Assembly: GCA_965218435.1 (NCBI GenBank)
Contig: CBDCKW010000009.1
Location: 2,784,001-2,848,000 of the forward strand
DNA length: 64,000 nucleotides
Direction of reading: 5' to 3'
Source: Truepera sp.
GTDB lineage: Bacteria; Deinococcota; Deinococci; Deinococcales; Trueperaceae
Shown here: positions 10,912 through 18,406 of the stretch, piece after piece
How positions within the stretch are numbered: position 1 is the stretch's first letter
Layout: the number at the start of each line of letters is the position of its first letter
Translations under genes and position numbers: made by a program
Notes under the pieces: generated by a model
Told to the model about the DNA's origin: nothing
Database searches by the model: none
What the model saw: the letters and a program-made list of their open reading frames with translations, nothing else

Positions 10912-11275
10912 TGGTGGAGGCGGCGGGAATCGAACCCGCGTCCGAAACCCCCTAAGACTGGCTTCTACGCGTGTAGTCGCTTGTCAATTGTCGGCGCAGG
11001 GCGAGCCCAGCGACCCGCTCACACCCTACGCTTACGCGCCTTTAGTTTCGCCTCAGCCCGACGCTAGAAGCTTTTGGCTAGCCTGTTTTAGGTCGTTCAG
11101 TCTAGCGAGCCACAGGCGGGGCTTCTAGTGAACGGAATAACTGCTCTTAAGCAGCCATTGCGTATTGCTGGTTATTGGTGCCAGTTAATGGCTTTACCGT
11201 TTTTTAGAGAGGCCAACGGCGTCCTCTACGCGCCACCACGCCCTTGGTGAGCCCCGTCGAAACCGGGACGCCCCC
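10912..11275 (-). ncRNA. ssrA: tmRNA; tag reading frame 11182-11147 encodes (A)GTNNQQYAMAA
   Basis: 5' GGGGGCG...TTCGAC; 3' GCGGGTTCGATTCCCGCCGCCTCCACCA; internal tag ending in AA-stop; extended -10 TGcTATACT at 11317-11325 on the minus strand. Confidence 0.97.
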
Positions 11276-11478: not shown

Positions 11479-12081
11479 GTGACGCTGCCAAACTTGACCT
11501 CCCAGCATCTGCGTGGGGTCTCCGCCTCAACCCTTATAGGTGCAATTTTTGCACTGATTTGGGGGATAAATGGCAGTTTAGCGTTGCCGAACAGCTGGCG
11601 CGTCGGAATCACCGCCATAGTCACTCTTATAACCCTTGGCCTGGTCGCGGTAAGCATCAATTTTTACCGAAGCGCCGGACGGGTTCCCTCGGGCACTGAC
11701 GCGCAAGCTACCAACCCGTTTCGGACGACGGCCTACCGCGTTGCGGTCGCGGCTATGCTGATCGCACTTCCGGTTGCGAGCAGAGTTCTGACACTAAACG
11801 GTCAGGGTGACGCCATCATGCCCACTGTTGCCATCATCGTAGGGCTTCATTTTTTGGGTCTTGTCCCAGCGTTTCGGAACGGTATTTTTGCCTGGATAGC
11901 CGGAGGGTTTTGTCTCATCGGACTTGTTGCGCTTTTCCTACCTGTGCAAGCCGGGAAGACGCTCGAGCTGCGCTACGCGGTCGTAGGCTTGGGCTGTGCC
12001 TTAGTTTTGTGGTTTAGTGCTTTGCCAAGCATAGCAAAGACGTTCAAGCAATTGGGCGCGGCAAAACAGGAACTTCGTTAA
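11479..12081 (+). CDS. Hypothetical integral membrane protein (about 6 TM)
   Basis: Multiple hydrophobic segments; IVGLHF motif. Confidence 0.75.
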   Translation: MTLPNLTSQHLRGVSASTLIGAIFALIWGINGSLALPNSWRVGITAIVTLITLGLVAVSINFYRSAGRVPSGTDAQATNPFRTTAYRVAVAAMLIALPVASRVLTLNGQGDAIMPTVAIIVGLHFLGLVPAFRNGIFAWIAGGFCLIGLVALFLPVQAGKTLELRYAVVGLGCALVLWFSALPSIAKTFKQLGAAKQELR

Positions 12082-12183: not shown

Positions 12184-12238
12184 TCAAACTTACTCTCAGC
12201 ACAACCCAAATAAAAGCTAAACAATCCGGTTTTATGGT
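12184..12238 (+). promoter_or_regulatory. Promoter with phased 11-bp repeats (site A)
   Basis: tcaaac 12184, ccaaat 12206, ctaaac 12217, then 10 nt and TATGGT at 12233. Confidence 0.65.
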
Positions 12239-12290
12239 GCTCAGTACGGCGCTGCGGTTAGGCCGCACCTAAACATGAGGAGAGTAGGGT

Positions 12291-13220
12291 ATGTCTCACC
12301 AGCATGACGAGAGTGGCATCAACGATTTGAGATTACAGGCTGACTTGTCTATGTGGCAAAAGAGGCCGCTCGAGCGCCGCCGCGTCTTGCAGCTGGGCGT
12401 GGTCGGTATCGGGGCACTGCTAGCGAGTTGTTCAGGCGCAGCGAAGGGCTCGAGTAGCGGTGCAAGCAGTAGCGTGTGCGTCACCGAAATTCCCGAAGAG
12501 ACGGCGGGGCCGTACCCGGCGGATGGGTCTGCGGGCTTCGGGGGTCCTGACGGCGACCCGACCGGAACCCCTCCCGGTGGCGGCCCCGGCGCACGGCCTC
12601 CCGGTGACTCGCCCCCTAGCTCGGTGAGTGCGGCGCAGACGGGCGGCGTCAACGTGCTCACGCGTTCGGGGATTGTCCGTAGCGACCTTAAGACGAGTTT
12701 GGGAACCGGCAATACGGCAGCGGGCGTTCCGACGACCCTCACCCTGCAACTTGTAAACTCGGCGGGTGCGTGTGCGCCTTTGGCGGGGTACGCCATCTAC
12801 GTGTGGCACTGTAACCGTGATGGTGAGTATTCGCTCTACTCAGCGGACGTGCTCGAGGAAGACTACCTGCGCGGTGTTCAGGAAACCGACGAAGACGGCA
12901 TGGTCACCTTCGAGACAGTTTTTCCGGCGTGTTACGCGGGGCGCTGGCCGCATGTTCACTTTGAAATCTACTCGTCACTAGACCAAGCGACGAGCGCCGA
13001 CAACAAGCTACACACCTCACAGTTGGCTGTGCCGCAAGCGATTTGCGAAGCCGTTTATCACAACGCCGAGGGCTACAGCCAGAGCGTGACCAACTTGTCG
13101 CAGATTTCGCTCGAGCGCGATAACGTCTTCAGCGACGGCTACGCCTCGCAACTTGCGGCGGTGACCGGGAGCATCAGCAAGGGTTACACCATGACCTTGC
13201 AAGTCGGGGTTGACGTTTAG
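12291..13220 (+). CDS. Intradiol ring-cleavage dioxygenase-like lipoprotein, Tat-exported
   Basis: RRRVL Tat-like motif, lipobox LLASC, ETAGPYP, WHC..DGEY, LRGVQETD, CYAGRWPHVH; Gly/Pro-rich insert. Confidence 0.85.
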   Translation: MSHQHDESGINDLRLQADLSMWQKRPLERRRVLQLGVVGIGALLASCSGAAKGSSSGASSSVCVTEIPEETAGPYPADGSAGFGGPDGDPTGTPPGGGPGARPPGDSPPSSVSAAQTGGVNVLTRSGIVRSDLKTSLGTGNTAAGVPTTLTLQLVNSAGACAPLAGYAIYVWHCNRDGEYSLYSADVLEEDYLRGVQETDEDGMVTFETVFPACYAGRWPHVHFEIYSSLDQATSADNKLHTSQLAVPQAICEAVYHNAEGYSQSVTNLSQISLERDNVFSDGYASQLAAVTGSISKGYTMTLQVGVDV

Positions 13221-13274
13221 CACCTTGAGTAGTCACACCGGGGCAGCTGAACACTTCAGGTTTTAGGAGAATGT

Positions 13275-13760
13275 ATGAACAAGTTAGGCGCGTGGACAAG
13301 AGATCATTTCATCACGCTGATTCTAGCGTTTACGGCAGGCGGGTTTGTGTTTATTCTAGCGGAGCTTTTGCTCGAGCGTCACTGGGGCGGCGTTCAGCTG
13401 GTTGCGCCGATCAGCGCAGCTGTCGGCCTCGTGTTGGTGCTTCTAGCTTTCACCTGGCGGCGGGCCGTACCGGTAGCCGTCCTTTTTTTACTGCTGGGCA
13501 TGACTGGACTGTTCGGCACCTTTGAACACTTCGAGGCGCGTACCGAAGAGCGTGACGGCCTACCTGGACAGGCGTCTCAGGTCGTAGTGCAGACCGTAAG
13601 TACCGTGCCTACCGGTACTGAAGGTGAAGCAAGGCCGCCGGACGGCGAACGGCGGGGTGGCCCTCCGTGGCTGGCTCCCCTCAGCCTGAGCGGACTCGCC
13701 TTACTCGGCGGTGCAGCAACACTGGCAGGTAAAAGTAACAGGGCGCAGCAAACATTGTAG
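13275..13760 (+). CDS. Hypothetical membrane protein (about 4 TM)
   Basis: SD AGGAG; hydrophobic segments; C-terminal PPWLAPLSLSG. Confidence 0.75.
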   Translation: MNKLGAWTRDHFITLILAFTAGGFVFILAELLLERHWGGVQLVAPISAAVGLVLVLLAFTWRRAVPVAVLFLLLGMTGLFGTFEHFEARTEERDGLPGQASQVVVQTVSTVPTGTEGEARPPDGERRGGPPWLAPLSLSGLALLGGAATLAGKSNRAQQTL

Positions 13761-13803
13761 ACGCAGTTCTTCAGACATTGCACGGTCCCGGCTTTCATCA
13801 AAC

Positions 13804-13836
13804 CCAAATGGCTTCCAAACACAGCTAGTGTAGGGT
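13804..13836 (+). promoter_or_regulatory. Promoter with phased 11-bp repeats (site B)
   Basis: ccaaat 13804, ccaaac 13815, then 10 nt and TAGGGT at 13831. Confidence 0.6.
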
Positions 13837-13995
13837 GTAGTTGCTTGACAAGGTATTTCCGGGGCAGCTCCCCCTCGCTAAACGTCGAGGCTCCAGTTAG
13901 TCAAGCAAGCACGACTGCCGTGACTTGGGTCTTTTGGCCGGACCGTAGGCAGCATCTTTAGAAGAGCTAAATCGTGCGGCTCAGAGGAGTAGCTG

Positions 13996-14535
13996 ATGAA
14001 AAAGCCTATGATAAAAGCCTTTTACGTTCTCGCATTGGTGGCTGGGTTTGCTCTGCCCGTCGGGTTTGCCCAAGTGTATCTCGGCGCGGAACTCGGTCAG
14101 CTGGCAACGAGTTACGCCAGCAACACTGCAGACTTGAGCAGCCGCGACATAGGCGCACAGCTGGGCCTCAATGTGTCCGGTCTCGGGTTACGCGCTGCGG
14201 TCGAGGGAAATATCGCGGCACGGAGTCTCGAGTCGGGTAGCCTCGACGCGCTCCTCAACGTACCGTTTGTCGCCGGAAGCAGTCTCTACTTGGGCGCGGG
14301 TGCCGACATTCTTGACCTGAGCCAGCTCCGCACCATTACGGCGCAGCAGACGGGCTTTAGTACGGCGCTGCAAGCAGGCGTCTTCGGGGCTCACGCAGTC
14401 GCCGGAGCTGAGGCGCGGCTGGGGCCGTTCGGGATTTTCGGAGAGGTTCAGCCCGTTTACCGGCTGGGTCAAGGGTTTACCGTTCAGAGCAACCCCTATC
14501 TCCGTACTCGAGCAGGACTCAACCTACATTTTTGA
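13996..14535 (+). CDS. Putative small outer-membrane beta-barrel protein
   Basis: Signal peptide, alternating hydrophobic strands (LYLGAGA, FGIFGEVQP), C-terminal Phe (RAGLNLHF); SD GAGGAG. Confidence 0.75.
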   Translation: MKKPMIKAFYVLALVAGFALPVGFAQVYLGAELGQLATSYASNTADLSSRDIGAQLGLNVSGLGLRAAVEGNIAARSLESGSLDALLNVPFVAGSSLYLGAGADILDLSQLRTITAQQTGFSTALQAGVFGAHAVAGAEARLGPFGIFGEVQPVYRLGQGFTVQSNPYLRTRAGLNLHF

Positions 14536-14577
14536 TCGTTGGTAGGTGGAGCATAGTAGTTGAGTAAGATAGAGAAA

Positions 14578-14620
14578 CAGAATACAGAGAATAGAGAAGT
14601 TTTACCTTCTCTGTATTCTG
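14578..14620 (+). terminator. 14-bp inverted repeat after the beta-barrel gene
   Basis: cagaatacagagaa/ttctctgtattctg, built from heptamer-like units. Confidence 0.5.
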
Positions 14621-14645
14621 ACTTCTAAAGAATTTTGTAAAAGGC

Positions 14646-14700
14646 TCAAACCAAAGCTAAACCTTAACGCAACTGTTTCTAAATGAGTGCCAGTTAAAAT
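14646..14700 (+). promoter_or_regulatory. Promoter with phased 11-bp repeats (site C, putative autoregulatory)
   Basis: tcaaac 14646, ctaaac 14657, ctaaat 14679, then 10 nt and TAAAAT at 14695. Confidence 0.65.
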
Positions 14701-14754
14701 TTTCTCATGGACGGCGCAGATGACACATTTTTAGCGGGTGCTACAGTAAACCTC

Positions 14755-15435
14755 ATGGCGTTGGTGCTCGTGGTTGAAGACGAACTTACGCTGGCGCAGA
14801 CGATTGAACTCTATTTGCGCCGCGAAAACTTTCGCACCGAACGCGCCGGGGACGGCAAACGCGCTTTAGAGCTGTTTGGAGCCGCGCGGCCCGACCTGGT
14901 GATTCTTGACCTCGGCTTACCGCAGCTTGACGGCCTCGAGGTCCTTAAAACCATTCGCGCGAATTCAGGTACCCCAGTCATTATTTTGACGGCCAGAGAT
15001 GAAGAAGTAGACGAGCTGTTAGGGCTCGGGCTGGGCGCGGACGACTATCTCGTCAAACCGGCGAGTGCCCGCAAGCTGATGGCGCGGGTAAAGGCCGTAC
15101 TCCGCCGCGTTCAAAACGTAGAAAACCAGGGGGACATATTGCGGGTTGGAGCGCTCGAGGTAGACACTTACGCGGTGGTCGCCAGAGTGGCGGGCAGGGC
15201 GCTCGAGCTGACTCCAACCGAGTTTAAGTTACTTCATCACCTCGCCCGGACGCCGGGGCGAGCGGTTTCCCGAACTGAACTCTACGAAGTGGCGATGCCT
15301 GAAAGTGACGCGTTTGAACGGGCGGTAGATATTCACATCACCAACTTGCGGCGCAAATTGCGGGACGCGGGCGCAGACGGTCTCATCGAAACGGTGCGCG
15401 GGCTCGGCTACCGGTTAGGGTCACAACAAGCGTGA
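14755..15435 (+). CDS. OmpR/PhoB-family response regulator (alternative in-frame start at 14707)
   Basis: VVEDE, DLVILDLGLP, LTARD, GADDYLVKP; winged helix LTPTEFKLL...HITNLRRKL...IETVRGLGY. Confidence 0.95.
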   Translation: MALVLVVEDELTLAQTIELYLRRENFRTERAGDGKRALELFGAARPDLVILDLGLPQLDGLEVLKTIRANSGTPVIILTARDEEVDELLGLGLGADDYLVKPASARKLMARVKAVLRRVQNVENQGDILRVGALEVDTYAVVARVAGRALELTPTEFKLLHHLARTPGRAVSRTELYEVAMPESDAFERAVDIHITNLRRKLRDAGADGLIETVRGLGYRLGSQQA

Positions 15436-16646
15436 ACCGGCTGGCGACTCGCTTACTGTTGGCGCTGCTGGCGGTGGCACTCTTGTCCCTTATCGCCGTA
15501 CCTACCCTACAAAGTATTGCAGCGCGGCGCATCTTCGGCGATCTCAGCCCCGAGTTTCGGGGGCGTATCGAAAGGTCTTTTAGAGGGCCGCCACACACCG
15601 GTTTAGACGGCCCCCCGCCCTTTCTCAGGTCAGCTCCACCAGATGGGCCGCCGGACGAAAGCTTTTTACAGCGAGAAAATACGCGTCTGCTCAGTGTTTT
15701 AAGCGACTACCGGGCGGCGCAGCGTCAGGCCGTTTTAGTTGGGGTTGGCGGCGCGGTCTTGGTGAGCGTTCTGCTCGCGCTGTTACTTTCAAGAACTATT
15801 GCCCGACCCATTGAAGCGGTCTCTAACGCCGCGTCACGGCTCGCAAGCGGTGACCTGAGTACGCGGGTAGACCTCGCTAAACTCCCCTATCCGGCCTCTG
15901 AGACGCGCACGCTCGCGCTCGACTTTAACCAGATGGCGACCGCGCTGGGGCAGCTCGAGGGTGAACGCAAAGCGATGATCGCCGACATCGCCCACGAACT
16001 CCGCAATCCGCTAGCCACCCTGCAACTCCGTCTTGACGCACTGTCTGACGGGCTCGTACAGTTTAACGATGACGAGGCCCAGCTGTTGCAGGGACAAGTC
16101 GGCTTATTGGCGCGGCTGATCGGCGATCTGCGCACCTTGTCGTTGGCCGACGCCGACCGGCTCACCTTGAACCGGCTCGAGCTCGACCTCAATACGCTCG
16201 CTGAGAACGCCGTGCAGCAGGCTCAGGCTAAAGCAAACAACGTAGGCGTCAGGCTCGAGTTCACCCCAGCCGATGAACCGGCATGGGTGGACGCCGACCC
16301 CGACCGCCTGACGCAAGTGCTTCATAACCTTCTCGACAACGCCTTTCGGGTAACGCCCCCCGGCGGCAAGGTTGACGTAACCCTGCTGAGCACCGCGAAC
16401 GAGGTGACGCTCCAGGTGCGCGACACCGGCCCCGGTATTGCCGAAGATGAACTGGGAACCGTTTTTGAACGCTTCGTTCAAGGTAGGCGTCGTGATACCC
16501 ACAGTAAAACCGGCAGCGGCTTAGGACTTGCGATTGTGCAAAGTTTAGTCAAATTGCACGGGGGCCGAGTTCAGGCTGAGAACTACCTTAGCGGTGACGA
16601 AAGCGGGGCGCAGCTCGAGGTTACCCTGCCCAGCTCCAGACCATAA
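15432..16646 (+). CDS. Sensor histidine kinase (BaeS-like, HAMP)
   Basis: Two TM segments with a Pro-rich loop, HAMP domain, AHELRNPL, NLLDNA, DTGPGI, GSGLGLAI; GTGA overlap with the regulator. Confidence 0.95.
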   Translation: MNRLATRLLLALLAVALLSLIAVPTLQSIAARRIFGDLSPEFRGRIERSFRGPPHTGLDGPPPFLRSAPPDGPPDESFLQRENTRLLSVLSDYRAAQRQAVLVGVGGAVLVSVLLALLLSRTIARPIEAVSNAASRLASGDLSTRVDLAKLPYPASETRTLALDFNQMATALGQLEGERKAMIADIAHELRNPLATLQLRLDALSDGLVQFNDDEAQLLQGQVGLLARLIGDLRTLSLADADRLTLNRLELDLNTLAENAVQQAQAKANNVGVRLEFTPADEPAWVDADPDRLTQVLHNLLDNAFRVTPPGGKVDVTLLSTANEVTLQVRDTGPGIAEDELGTVFERFVQGRRRDTHSKTGSGLGLAIVQSLVKLHGGRVQAENYLSGDESGAQLEVTLPSSRP

Positions 16647-16650
16647 AGCC

Positions 16651-16705
16651 CTAAACGAACTCTAAACAAACTCCATATCAAACCTTCTGGGTGACCCGTC
16701 ATGCT
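16651..16705 (+). promoter_or_regulatory. Promoter with phased 11-bp repeats (site D)
   Basis: ctaaac 16651, ctaaac 16662, ccatat 16673; CATGCT at 16700 in the same register as the other sites. Confidence 0.6.
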
Positions 16706-16763
16706 GCGACCTAGTGAGGCTGGCTCACGCCGACTCAACTACTTCACGAGGAAAGGAACCGTT

Positions 16764-17159
16764 ATGACTTTTCACACTATCTTTGCAGCAGCCGTTCTTT
16801 GGGGAAGCTTTGCCGGGGCGCAAACAGCGCCGAGCGCGGTAACGTCCCCCTACCTACAACTCAGAGATGACGGCAGCTTACGCGCTACGCTGGTTAGCTC
16901 CGGGGGTAGTACCGCTTCTATTCGCACTTCTACCCTCAAACAGAGCGGCACTTGGTTTGCGTCCGTTCACCCTCAAACCAGCCTTACCGAAGTGGCCGAC
17001 TACTACTGGGACGCGCTTACCCGGTTGGGTTTTGAGCGCACAAGCGAGTCAGCCACCGAAAAGGTCGTGATATGGACGTTGCAAAAGGACGGGCGTCAGG
17101 TGAGCGTGGTGTTTAACCAGCAGGGCGCGGGCGTCGTCGCCAACATCTCGTGGTTATAA
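16764..17159 (+). CDS. Hypothetical secreted protein
   Basis: SD GAAAGGA before ATG 16764; signal peptide ending in AGA-Q. Confidence 0.7.
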   Translation: MTFHTIFAAAVLWGSFAGAQTAPSAVTSPYLQLRDDGSLRATLVSSGGSTASIRTSTLKQSGTWFASVHPQTSLTEVADYYWDALTRLGFERTSESATEKVVIWTLQKDGRQVSVVFNQQGAGVVANISWL

Positions 17160-17217
17160 GACATAGTTTTGGGGCGCAGTTTTAGGACGCGCGGGTTTGA
17201 AACGCCCCGGCTGCCTG

Positions 17218-17272
17218 CCAAATAAACTCCAAACAAAAGTCATACGAAAGCCTTATATCGCCCTGACACACT
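17218..17272 (+). promoter_or_regulatory. Promoter with phased 11-bp repeats (site E)
   Basis: ccaaat 17218, ccaaac 17229, tcatac 17240; CACACT at 17267 in the same register. Confidence 0.6.
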
Positions 17273-17316: not shown

Positions 17317-18123
17317 ATGAAAAAACTTATCGTCTTAACAGCAGGCAGCCTCCTCGTCGGCAGTTTGGGTTTTGTCGGGGCACAGGGTGCGCAGAGCGGC
17401 TCGGATACGCAGAGTCAGACCCAAGCGCCGCTGCAGATGCAGAATTTTCGCGGTTTCGGTCACGGCTTTGGGGAAGGGGACGATTTCGGCTATGGTTTTG
17501 AAGGCTCGCCCTTCGGACGGCACCTCGCGCTGGGAACGACCGTCAAGCTTACGTTCTACAACACCGACCCCGGCGCTTCGGGTAGTACCGCTAAACCAAC
17601 CCAAACGCTGACCTTCACCTATGGGCAAGACAGCGAGGCCGCTTTCGCGCAGAGTTTCGCCGAGGCGCGGGCGAACGCGGGCTACCTGACGGTCAACGTC
17701 GGTGAGCAGACGCAGACGCTTACGTTACCAAGTTCTGACACCGCATCCGACACCTCGGTTTTCGGCCAGGGCGACCGGCATGGCGGCGTCTACGGCGCAC
17801 TACCTCTGCAGGGACTGAATGAGGGCTCGAGCGTCAAAGCCACCTTTTACGACGGCGACCCCGAGGCGAACGGTAAGGTGGTGCAGACGCTGAATTTTAC
17901 CTACGGGAAAGACAGTGAAGCTGGTTTTGCCGACCAGTTCGCCAGTGCCGCGCAAAACGCCGCTTACGTCACCGTGACGACCAGCCCACAAACCTACACG
18001 GTCAACCTCGCAGCGGTACCGAACAGAAGTTTTATGGGACGCGGCGGTTTCGGCGGTCGGTTTGGCGGTGATGACGGCTTTAGCGGTGGTTTCGGGCACG
18101 GAGGCCCCGGACACAGACGCTAA
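17317..18123 (+). CDS. Secreted protein with a duplicated ~62-aa domain and Gly/Phe-rich tracts
   Basis: Signal peptide; two copies of G..VK.TFY..DP....QTL.FTYG.DSEA.FA..FA.A..NA.Y.TV; GFGG tracts. Confidence 0.8.
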   Translation: MKKLIVLTAGSLLVGSLGFVGAQGAQSGSDTQSQTQAPLQMQNFRGFGHGFGEGDDFGYGFEGSPFGRHLALGTTVKLTFYNTDPGASGSTAKPTQTLTFTYGQDSEAAFAQSFAEARANAGYLTVNVGEQTQTLTLPSSDTASDTSVFGQGDRHGGVYGALPLQGLNEGSSVKATFYDGDPEANGKVVQTLNFTYGKDSEAGFADQFASAAQNAAYVTVTTSPQTYTVNLAAVPNRSFMGRGGFGGRFGGDDGFSGGFGHGGPGHRR

Positions 18124-18139: not shown

Positions 18140-18180
18140 AAATAAGCTGCAGCGCCATCTGAGCACTGCAGCTTATTTTT
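18140..18180 (+). terminator. Intrinsic terminator ending the cluster
   Basis: Stem aaataagctgcag/ctgcagcttattt followed by T-run. Confidence 0.8.
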
Positions 18181-18406
18181 GGCGACGATACCGTTGACGC
18201 GCTCAATTTCCTGCCTCAGTCAAGGTGCTTATTCACCCTACAAAGCATGGTCACGCCTGTACAGCCCCAACTAAACTCGGCTTTCATTCGGTTATAGGGA
18301 GCACCGCTCGAGCAGGAATAGGCAAGAAAAGGAACGGTTTTGGCATTCACCTCACCCTGCGGCTGGCACTACGATTAGGTCAGCACAAGCTCGTAAGGAG
18401 GGCCGT

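Follow-up and report, generated by a model that had tools for sequence, protein, structure and literature searches.

Which protein reads the phased hexamer arrays that precede the promoters of a small gene cluster in a Truepera genome, and to what effect? The cluster lies at 12.3-18.1 kb of a stretch of 64,000 nucleotides, here called the window (assembly GCA_965218435.1, contig CBDCKW010000009.1, positions 2,784,001 to 2,848,000; C9:2784001-2848000 of the genome that we number G000, with G for other genomes and L for loci). It consists of seven genes, all on the plus strand, among them those of a response regulator in the OmpR/PhoB family and a sensor histidine kinase. Five predicted promoters, A to E, carry tandem hexamers with an 11-bp period that end 10 nt before a -10-like box, are conserved among relatives and co-occur with one clade of regulators. 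These arrays are very probably the binding and activation sites of the adjacent regulator, a BaeR/AdeR-like protein that, once phosphorylated by its kinase, would bind the -35 region as dimers placed head to tail and switch on all five promoters including its own. The arrays are then best read as marking a small regulon, local to the cluster, that consists of exported proteins and includes positive feedback.

In a preliminary description of this DNA, five arrays with an 11-bp period, 10-nt spacers and -10 hexamers had been listed, and all of these were found (Table 1). The hexamer proposed there, YYAAAY, fitted 12 of the 18 listed units exactly, and in arrays D and E the promoter-proximal unit (CTTCTG and CCTTAT, respectively) deviated from it. 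In array B a third phased unit, TTTCAT at 13793, was added by us and is kept in G005. The 5-nt linkers are rich in A, which was observed at linker positions 2, 3 and 4 in 9, 11 and 8 of 15 cases, and the consensus is better given as CYAAAY followed by an A-rich linker. The claim that every transcription unit carries an array holds for the five promoters; the membrane protein gene at 13275-13760 and the kinase gene have no array of their own. The former is likely the second gene of operon A and the latter would be the second gene of operon C, the regulator stop and the kinase start overlapping at 15432-15435. A promoter scan detected no -35 consensus at the five promoters and called none of arrays A-E as a -35/-10 promoter.

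The arrays are far beyond chance. The genome has 48 copies of the bare pair YYAAAY-N5-YYAAAY, and for this pair a period of 11 is not enriched genome-wide over other spacings (25-65 occurrences per spacing). Five of the 48 pairs fall, on one strand, within these 5.1 kb (binomial 7e-11, for a motif picked post hoc). To allow for this picking of the motif, patterns of the same class were compared: the only one common to all five regions was YYAAAY at period 11, and sets of five upstream regions sharing any such phased pattern were observed in 0 of 2858 consecutive runs and 0 of 200000 random draws. The question raised earlier, whether the motif is equally common in unrelated upstream regions, was answered in the negative, the pair being held by only 7 of 2893 such regions, defined by gene starts from a rough in-house gene caller. 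When the genome was scanned with a matrix, as had also been suggested, leave-one-out ranks among 9.61 million positions were 3 for A, 274 for B, 4 for C, 9 for D and 5 for E. A model made from 24 units of other loci, the training of which left out the own genome, G004, G005, L366 and L294, ranked the five arrays 1, 2, 3, 8 and 10 in the genome. Bar one weak candidate, the remaining five of the top-ten matches were antisense inside predicted genes or had no downstream open reading frame (ORF). To the extent covered by the scans, the regulon of this genome is thus a local one, with no convincing member found beyond the cluster. The weak candidate is a distal array at C9:2934968(-) (L446); a 110-aa ORF that lacks a Shine-Dalgarno sequence follows it after about 100 nt. 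Strict patterns scanned in five relatives gave few further matches, near control counts.

Conservation upstream of orthologous clusters had been proposed as a further check, and the arrays were indeed kept at orthologous promoters, including those of targets far from the regulator. Array C is kept in G004 and G005, where regulator identity is 86% and 80-82%, and also in G046, G053, G009, G061, G112-114 and G006. Among close metagenome loci, 5 of 7 showed an array at the regulator promoter above threshold; at L289 it was below threshold, and at L290 an array was seen only downstream of the kinase. Array B is kept in G005 with a better -10 box (TAATCT), array D upstream of the orthologue in L366, and array E in G004, G005, G083 and L366 and at unlinked orthologues. 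The dioxygenase-like gene behind array A was matched in 9 of 128 family genomes, and in six of the other eight (G004, G046, G112, G113, G114 and G127) an equivalent of array A was found, with an A core, 10 nt before TAnnnT, at a gene unlinked from the regulator. The locus in G006 is cut by a contig end, and the promoter in G003, a genome with four regulator matches all of Lys/Arg type, has CCACAC/CCGTAT instead. The Gly-rich gene behind array E is present in 33 of 363 genomes of the order, all within the family of the window (f1). Unlinked copies in G046, G060, G061, G062, G112, G113, G114 and G127 have CYAAAY-type arrays, and at the promoters in G009 and of one G127 copy CYAAAY-type units are mixed with C-core units.

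At some of these loci the genes align in pieces, namely the kinase of G005 (L032:8110-9346), the dioxygenase-like gene of G004 (L281:1096-1821) and the regulator plus kinase of L366:5001-6468; these may be frameshifts or deletions, or assembly errors, and the promoter arrays at the three loci are intact. The 150-nt leader that follows array B (13843-13995; L032:6350-6560) has two blocks, at about 13859-13896, that are kept in G005, and its folding was no better than that of shuffled sequences (z 0.38).

The box follows the regulator and not the target gene, because it changes where another regulator accompanies the same genes. In G059, G058, G056, G057 and G008 the Gly-rich gene adjoins a different OmpR regulator with the recognition helix VVKVCVHH, three of these five loci also hold a dioxygenase-like gene, and the Gly-rich promoters carry CGTAAC-type units at the same 10-nt distance. 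Over the VVKVCVHH regulator loci, many of them close kin, a CGTAAC-type pair was found in 25 of 30 and a YYAAAY pair in 0 of 30; in G055 the CGTAAC-type box is present and the VVKVCVHH regulator is absent from the locus. Where the regulators examined are of Lys/Arg type (G126, G084 and G003), position 4 of the boxes in front of these target genes was mostly C; the Gly-rich gene of G126 and G084, whose regulators are Lys-Asn, is preceded mostly by C-core units. The genome of the window contains 16 OmpR-type domains, and its paralogues show the same geometry with the hexamers CTTCAC, CTTCAT, CTCAAC and CGTAAC. Its own copy of the VVKV-type regulator (VVKVYVHH, C9:3568767) lies elsewhere with its own CTTAAC/CGTAAC array. 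Conservation, the change of box with the regulator, the geometry at paralogues and the in-frame starts described below together support, at the level of sequence, the earlier suggestion that the arrays are the operator of the adjacent regulator.

Further arrangements were noted around these paralogues. The motif GTTACG...CGTAAC, placed back to back for divergent promoters, accompanies the VVKVCVHH regulator in the 25 of 30 loci (L243-L272), mostly of family f4, and is also present at L038:10340-10480 and L043:7810-7950; it looks like a second operator and appears undescribed. At L038, L043 and loci of genus g26, a Lys-Asn system and a VVKV system lie within about 3 kb, facing each other, by a dioxygenase-like gene. 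On contig C5, two near-identical regulator-kinase regions (C5:38770 and C5:280854) each have a CTCAAC array facing a divergent gene.

The relation between recognition helix and box was followed with a scorer blind to hexamer positions 3-4, applied to 350 bp upstream of 80 related regulators at a threshold of 16.2, the 97.5th percentile of 1500 upstream regions of the own genome; base counts cover only loci with a site above threshold, and residues are numbered as in AdeR on the 242-aa form of the regulator. For helices with Thr-Asn at 212-213, as in the window regulator (R205-A-V-D208-I209-H-I-T212-N213-L-R215), a site was detected in 13 of 20 loci and position 4 was A in 30 of 35 units. The corresponding numbers were 18 of 40 loci and 1 of 47 units for Lys/Arg-Asn, and 5 of 9 loci and 4 of 15 units for Ala/Val-Asn. 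A second set of 66 further loci, three helices of which were unparsed, gave a site in 19 of 34 Lys/Arg-Asn loci (A in 2 of 50 units), 3 of 5 Thr-Asn loci (A in 7 of 8 units), 8 of 13 Gly-Asn loci (G 8, A 5, C 3 and T 2 at position 4) and 1 of 2 Ala-Asn loci (CTTAAC twice). Pooled, position 4 was A in 37 of 43 units for Thr-Asn versus 3 of 97 for Lys/Arg-Asn. A simple rule by which the lack of Lys means A was dropped, as Gly-Asn and x-Ser helices keep C or G. At distant regulator loci outside Deinococcota, 5 of 74 were above threshold.

A correlation between residue 209 and position 3 was noticed once the data were in hand. Among 70 Deinococcales loci with a site and a parsed helix, Ile209 (19 loci) went with A in 41 of 52 units, Val (32 loci) with T in 49 and A in 26 of 84 units, Ala (7 loci) with T in 12 of 14, and Ser (6 loci) with G in 10 and C in 4 of 16. 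Of the window units, 17 of 20 scored better under a Thr-type than under a Lys-type model from other genomes. Contacts described for related regulators would, by our own mapping, involve the same residues. Those of AdeR in its complex with DNA are made by Ser209 to 16C and by Lys213 to 9G' (PMC5766154); they would fall on positions 3 and 4 of CTCCAC, in our numbering. His195 of PmrA contacts THY43 in a docking model (PMC3973317) and is among the hydrophobic base contacts of the crystal paper (PMC4660055); by our own numbering it would stand at the place of Thr212, with THY43 pairing with position 4 of CTTAAT. The helix of BaeR reads D-S-H-I-K-N.

Across the 70 Deinococcales loci, helix residues 209 and 212-213 thus vary together with positions 3 and 4 of the box; the independent lineages behind this are few and there are exceptions, and we regard a recognition code as a supported hypothesis. 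Taken jointly, the BaeR/AdeR-like regulators of Deinococcales may use a two-position code, a proposal for which we see the chances as evenly balanced. Position 3 would depend on residue 209, being A with Ile, T or A with Val or Ala, and G or C with Ser or Gly; position 4 would depend on residues 212-213, being C or T with Lys/Arg-Asn, A with Thr-Asn and relaxed with Gly-Asn. Such a code would insulate six paralogous systems of one genome on one promoter geometry, let a target module be rewired by editing 2-3 bases per box and make operators predictable from the protein. A protein-DNA code of OmpR-type factors was reportedly treated by Joyce and Havranek in 2018 and may already cover part of it.

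Several observations weigh against these interpretations. Three of the 20 window units (in B the distal one, in D and E the proximal ones) prefer the Lys-type model, and in the first set only the 13 of 20 Thr-Asn and 18 of 40 Lys/Arg-Asn loci had an above-threshold site at all. At the regulator promoter, C was found in 8 of 12 units of four Val-Asn loci, and C, G and T were found at G083 (Ala-Asn); the bases at a Thr-Ser locus were C and G. The non-Lys orthologues group together in a single clade of 31 (SH-aLRT, a likelihood-based branch test, 98 in a quick tree that included the helix columns; a FastTree tree was made from the alignment cut before the helix), and the only separate A-type lineages are the own C5 paralogue (D-S-H-I-T-N, CTCAAC) and L413 (Ala-Asn, CTTAAC). 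The A-type boxes thus belong mostly to one clade plus two lineages, amounting to about three independent events. The base-reading Lys of AdeR is at 213, which is always Asn in this clade, so that Lys/Arg212 would have to take over its part. The C5 paralogue is also Thr-Asn and could cross-bind, and activation as the direction of control is deduced from site position alone.

The -10 box of array C is followed after 6 nt by an in-frame ATG at 14707, a predicted leaderless start of the regulator. The regulator had been placed at 14755 in the preliminary description; it is indeed encoded there, and the in-frame start at 14707 was added. Of 39 loci with a same-strand site, which are related to one another, 19 have an in-frame ATG or GTG exactly 6 nt downstream of the -10 box, and in 23 the first start codon in frame follows the box by 5-7 nt. 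TAnnnT was also observed in 23 of 38 loci at the place of P2, a predicted basal promoter in front of ATG 14755. In Deinococcus radiodurans, TANNNT is reported about 6-7 bp before leaderless genes (PMC12340547), and the predicted promoters of the regulator match such leaderless -10 promoters of Deinococcus-Thermus, P1 lying 6 nt before ATG 14707 and P2 7 nt before ATG 14755. We infer that the regulator has a basal promoter, P2, and a regulator-driven promoter, P1.

These features suggest the following course of events. P2 would supply regulator and kinase as a basal leaderless promoter. Upon a signal, for which envelope or extracytoplasmic stress is our guess, phosphorylated dimers would fill one box pair or two, between about -61 and -23, and stand in for a -35 element in recruiting RNA polymerase; with the -10 box taken as -12 to -7, the box units lie at about -61, -50, -39 and -28. 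By analogy with PhoB, the dimers would be arranged head to tail, the wing would read the A-rich linker and the proximal pair would substitute for the -35 element. P1 would then give positive feedback through a leaderless transcript from ATG 14707. Because their proximal units are weak and their boxes are of CAnnnT type, D and E may be the harder promoters to switch on, and with their strong distal units they may need more phosphorylated regulator than A-C. Ile209 and Thr212-Asn213 would select the AA core, and Lys/Arg-Asn paralogues C or T at position 4; such selection by the helix would separate this regulon from those of the paralogues.

A protein bound to the boxes lies over the -35 region and can there also obstruct polymerase, and the TAnnnT boxes of A, B and C are of a kind that can work alone in this phylum (PMC12340547). 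Both points would suit a local regulator that binds the arrays and represses some or all of the promoters, or activates and represses by occupancy. We consider this improbable, as the 10-nt distance is constant across five promoters, many genomes and three box types, the five promoters lack a -35 consensus, D and E have weak CAnnnT boxes, and the separate basal promoter predicted for the regulator is what positive feedback would predict.

An equally improbable reading is that the arrays serve another OmpR-family regulator, the neighbour being incidental or cross-talking. The 16 OmpR-type domains provide candidates: the two C5 copies share Thr212-Asn213 and have CTCAAC boxes, and the VVKVYVHH protein at C9:3568767 belongs to a type that controls the same target genes in other genomes. 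Each candidate, however, has its own, different box at its own promoter; G053 and G062 carry CYAAAY arrays yet gave no VVKV match at 1e-70, and CYAAAY tracks the Ile209/Thr212 orthologue across genomes. Least credible, with hardly any weight in our estimate, is that the arrays are phased A-tracts bending DNA, or UP-like elements, read by no specific regulator. AAA cores and A-rich linkers do recur once per helical turn, but the arrays are confined to this cluster, the flanking C and Y positions are kept, and at sister loci the core shifts to TC, GC or TG with the regulator helix while the geometry is unchanged. Activation by the adjacent regulator thus remains the preferred reading of the arrays.

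All array targets in the cluster are exported or membrane proteins (Table 1), and the predicted targets in relatives also include a DUF2202 gene and a SHOCT-like gene, the latter in the G046 operon. The dioxygenase-like protein has twin-arginine and lipobox motifs at its N-terminus, read by eye, and its iron-ligand positions are Y180, Y215, H221 and H223. A possible likeness of the membrane protein encoded from 13275 to a gene in the G046 operon was scored at E 0.14. The exported protein behind array B looks like an outer-membrane beta-barrel as judged by eye. In the regulator, whose closest relatives are from Trueperaceae, the receiver (PF00072) and winged-helix Trans_reg_C (PF00486) domains are over cut-off, with Asp68 as phospho-acceptor and Lys117. 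The kinase has a short Pro-rich loop flanked by two hydrophobic stretches. AdeR/AdeS and BaeR/BaeS are among the top NCBIfam matches of the regulator and the kinase, all of which are below cut-offs. For the Gly-rich protein, the structural model has a pLDDT (predicted local distance difference test) value above 90 across most of both domains; no Atlas match and no Foldseek match at E 0.001 were found, and the best structural Z was 5.4. The hairpin at the cluster end was not in the output of the terminator scan, which has a loop limit of 8.

Table 1. Coordinates of arrays, promoters, genes and the cluster end in the window
Feature	Position	Strand	Details
Array A	12184..12238	+	units at 12184, 12195, 12206, 12217; 10-nt spacer; -10 box TATGGT at 12233-12238
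Intradiol dioxygenase-like protein	12291..13220	+	PF00775 over cut-off; homologues; solved relatives
Membrane protein, no named family	13275..13760	+	Atlas match 0.92 to an unnamed cluster, mostly Deinococcota
Array B	13793..13836	+	TTTCAT at 13793, CCAAAT at 13804, CCAAAC at 13815; 10-nt spacer; -10 box TAGGGT at 13831-13836
Exported protein, C-terminal Phe	13996..14535	+	no Pfam match; three paralogues in genome
Array C, regulator's own promoter P1	14646..14700	+	units at 14646, 14657, 14668, 14679; 10-nt spacer; -10 box TAAAAT at 14695-14700
OmpR/PhoB-family response regulator	14707..15435	+	242 aa from 14707, 226 aa from 14755
Basal promoter P2 (predicted)	14720..14747	+	ATGACA-N16-TACAGT with TG extension, 7 nt before ATG 14755
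Sensor histidine kinase	15432..16646	+	HAMP, HisKA (His188), HATPase
Array D	16651..16705	+	units at 16651, 16662, 16673, 16684 (weak); 10-nt spacer; -10 box CATGCT at 16700-16705
Small exported protein, no known family	16764..17159	+	
Array E	17218..17272	+	units at 17218, 17229, 17240, 17251 (weak); 10-nt spacer; -10 box CACACT at 17267-17272
Gly-rich exported protein	17317..18123	+	two copies of a small beta-beta-alpha-beta-beta domain
Terminator-like hairpin, then T run; cluster end	18140..18181	+	read by eye

Upstream of the cluster, a transfer-messenger RNA (tmRNA) gene (RF00023) is located at 10912-11275 on the minus strand, about 900 bp from array A; it was the only hit of an Rfam scan of 10-20 kb, and the GC content showed no island edge around it. 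Between this gene and array A, a membrane protein is encoded at 11479-12081 on the plus strand, with no array upstream and a weak DUF7010 likeness below cut-off.

The mechanism itself is the classical, textbook OmpR/PhoB grammar, and by its domains, operon kinase and conserved tandem repeats one helical turn apart at a fixed distance from the -10 box the window system fits this family. In PhoB regulation, the pho boxes are 11-bp repeats that end about 10 bp before the -10 box. The likeness to PhoB lies in this geometry, in the proposed activation mode and in an alignable helix; the difference lies in the hexamer, the helix residues and the global phosphate regulon versus a local one.

AdeR of Acinetobacter baumannii (PMC5766154) shares the OmpR/PhoB fold, a gapless alignment before and in the recognition helix and the 11-bp period, and on the other strand its repeat reads CTCCAC plus an A/T-rich linker, in the same frame as CYAAAY. 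Its helix is D-S-H-V-S-K versus D-I-H-I-T-N in the window regulator, and the core is CC versus AA. The window regulator scored 198 bits on the AdeR model (NF012227), below the cut-off of 340, and the cluster has neither an adjacent RND-type efflux operon nor the AAGTGTGGAG repeat, the arrays differing at positions 3 and 4; in another difference from AdeR, they contain as many as four units at one promoter. BaeR of Escherichia coli and Salmonella, with the consensus TCTNCANAA (as cited in PMC3799227), is likewise among the best family matches and has envelope-protein targets, and in its D-S-H-I-K-N helix, as in the C at position 4 of its box, it agrees with the Lys-type paralogues of the window regulator. 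However, the BaeR model (NF007982) gave 184 bits against a cut-off of 380, no strong window unit has the C at position 4 of the CTNCA core, and the target genes differ from those of the cluster.

The PmrA/BasR box, CTTAAT-N5-CCTAAG, also has units 11 bp apart with A at position 4, and PmrA has Asn at the place of Asn213 (PMC3973317 and PMC4660055); it differs in being a more distant regulator, with T at position 3, K at position 6 and a lipid A modification regulon. CopR of Corynebacterium glutamicum, with TGAAGATTTnnTGAAGATTT, likewise has a small local regulon (PMC3140484), and the reverse strand of its site, AAATCTTCA, is the box at several paralogues of the window regulator family; the CopRS repeat TGAAGATTT is not in the window arrays, and the cluster is without a copper ATPase or oxidase. 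A literature search, with most subscription papers and supplements outside its scope, gave no description of the present box or regulon.

For a two-component system of Trueperaceae that has not been studied before, an operator, a promoter map and a feedback layout are proposed here, and several exported proteins to which no function is assigned, including one that clearly matches no solved fold, would be tied to one switch. The loci that moved from one regulator to another provide a natural example of target genes changing hands. From the paired regulators and self-promoters, a code linking residues to bases can be put forward for testing in the BaeR/AdeR branch of the OmpR family, and the co-variation of the two middle letters of the box with helix residues would, if true, make binding sites predictable from protein sequence.

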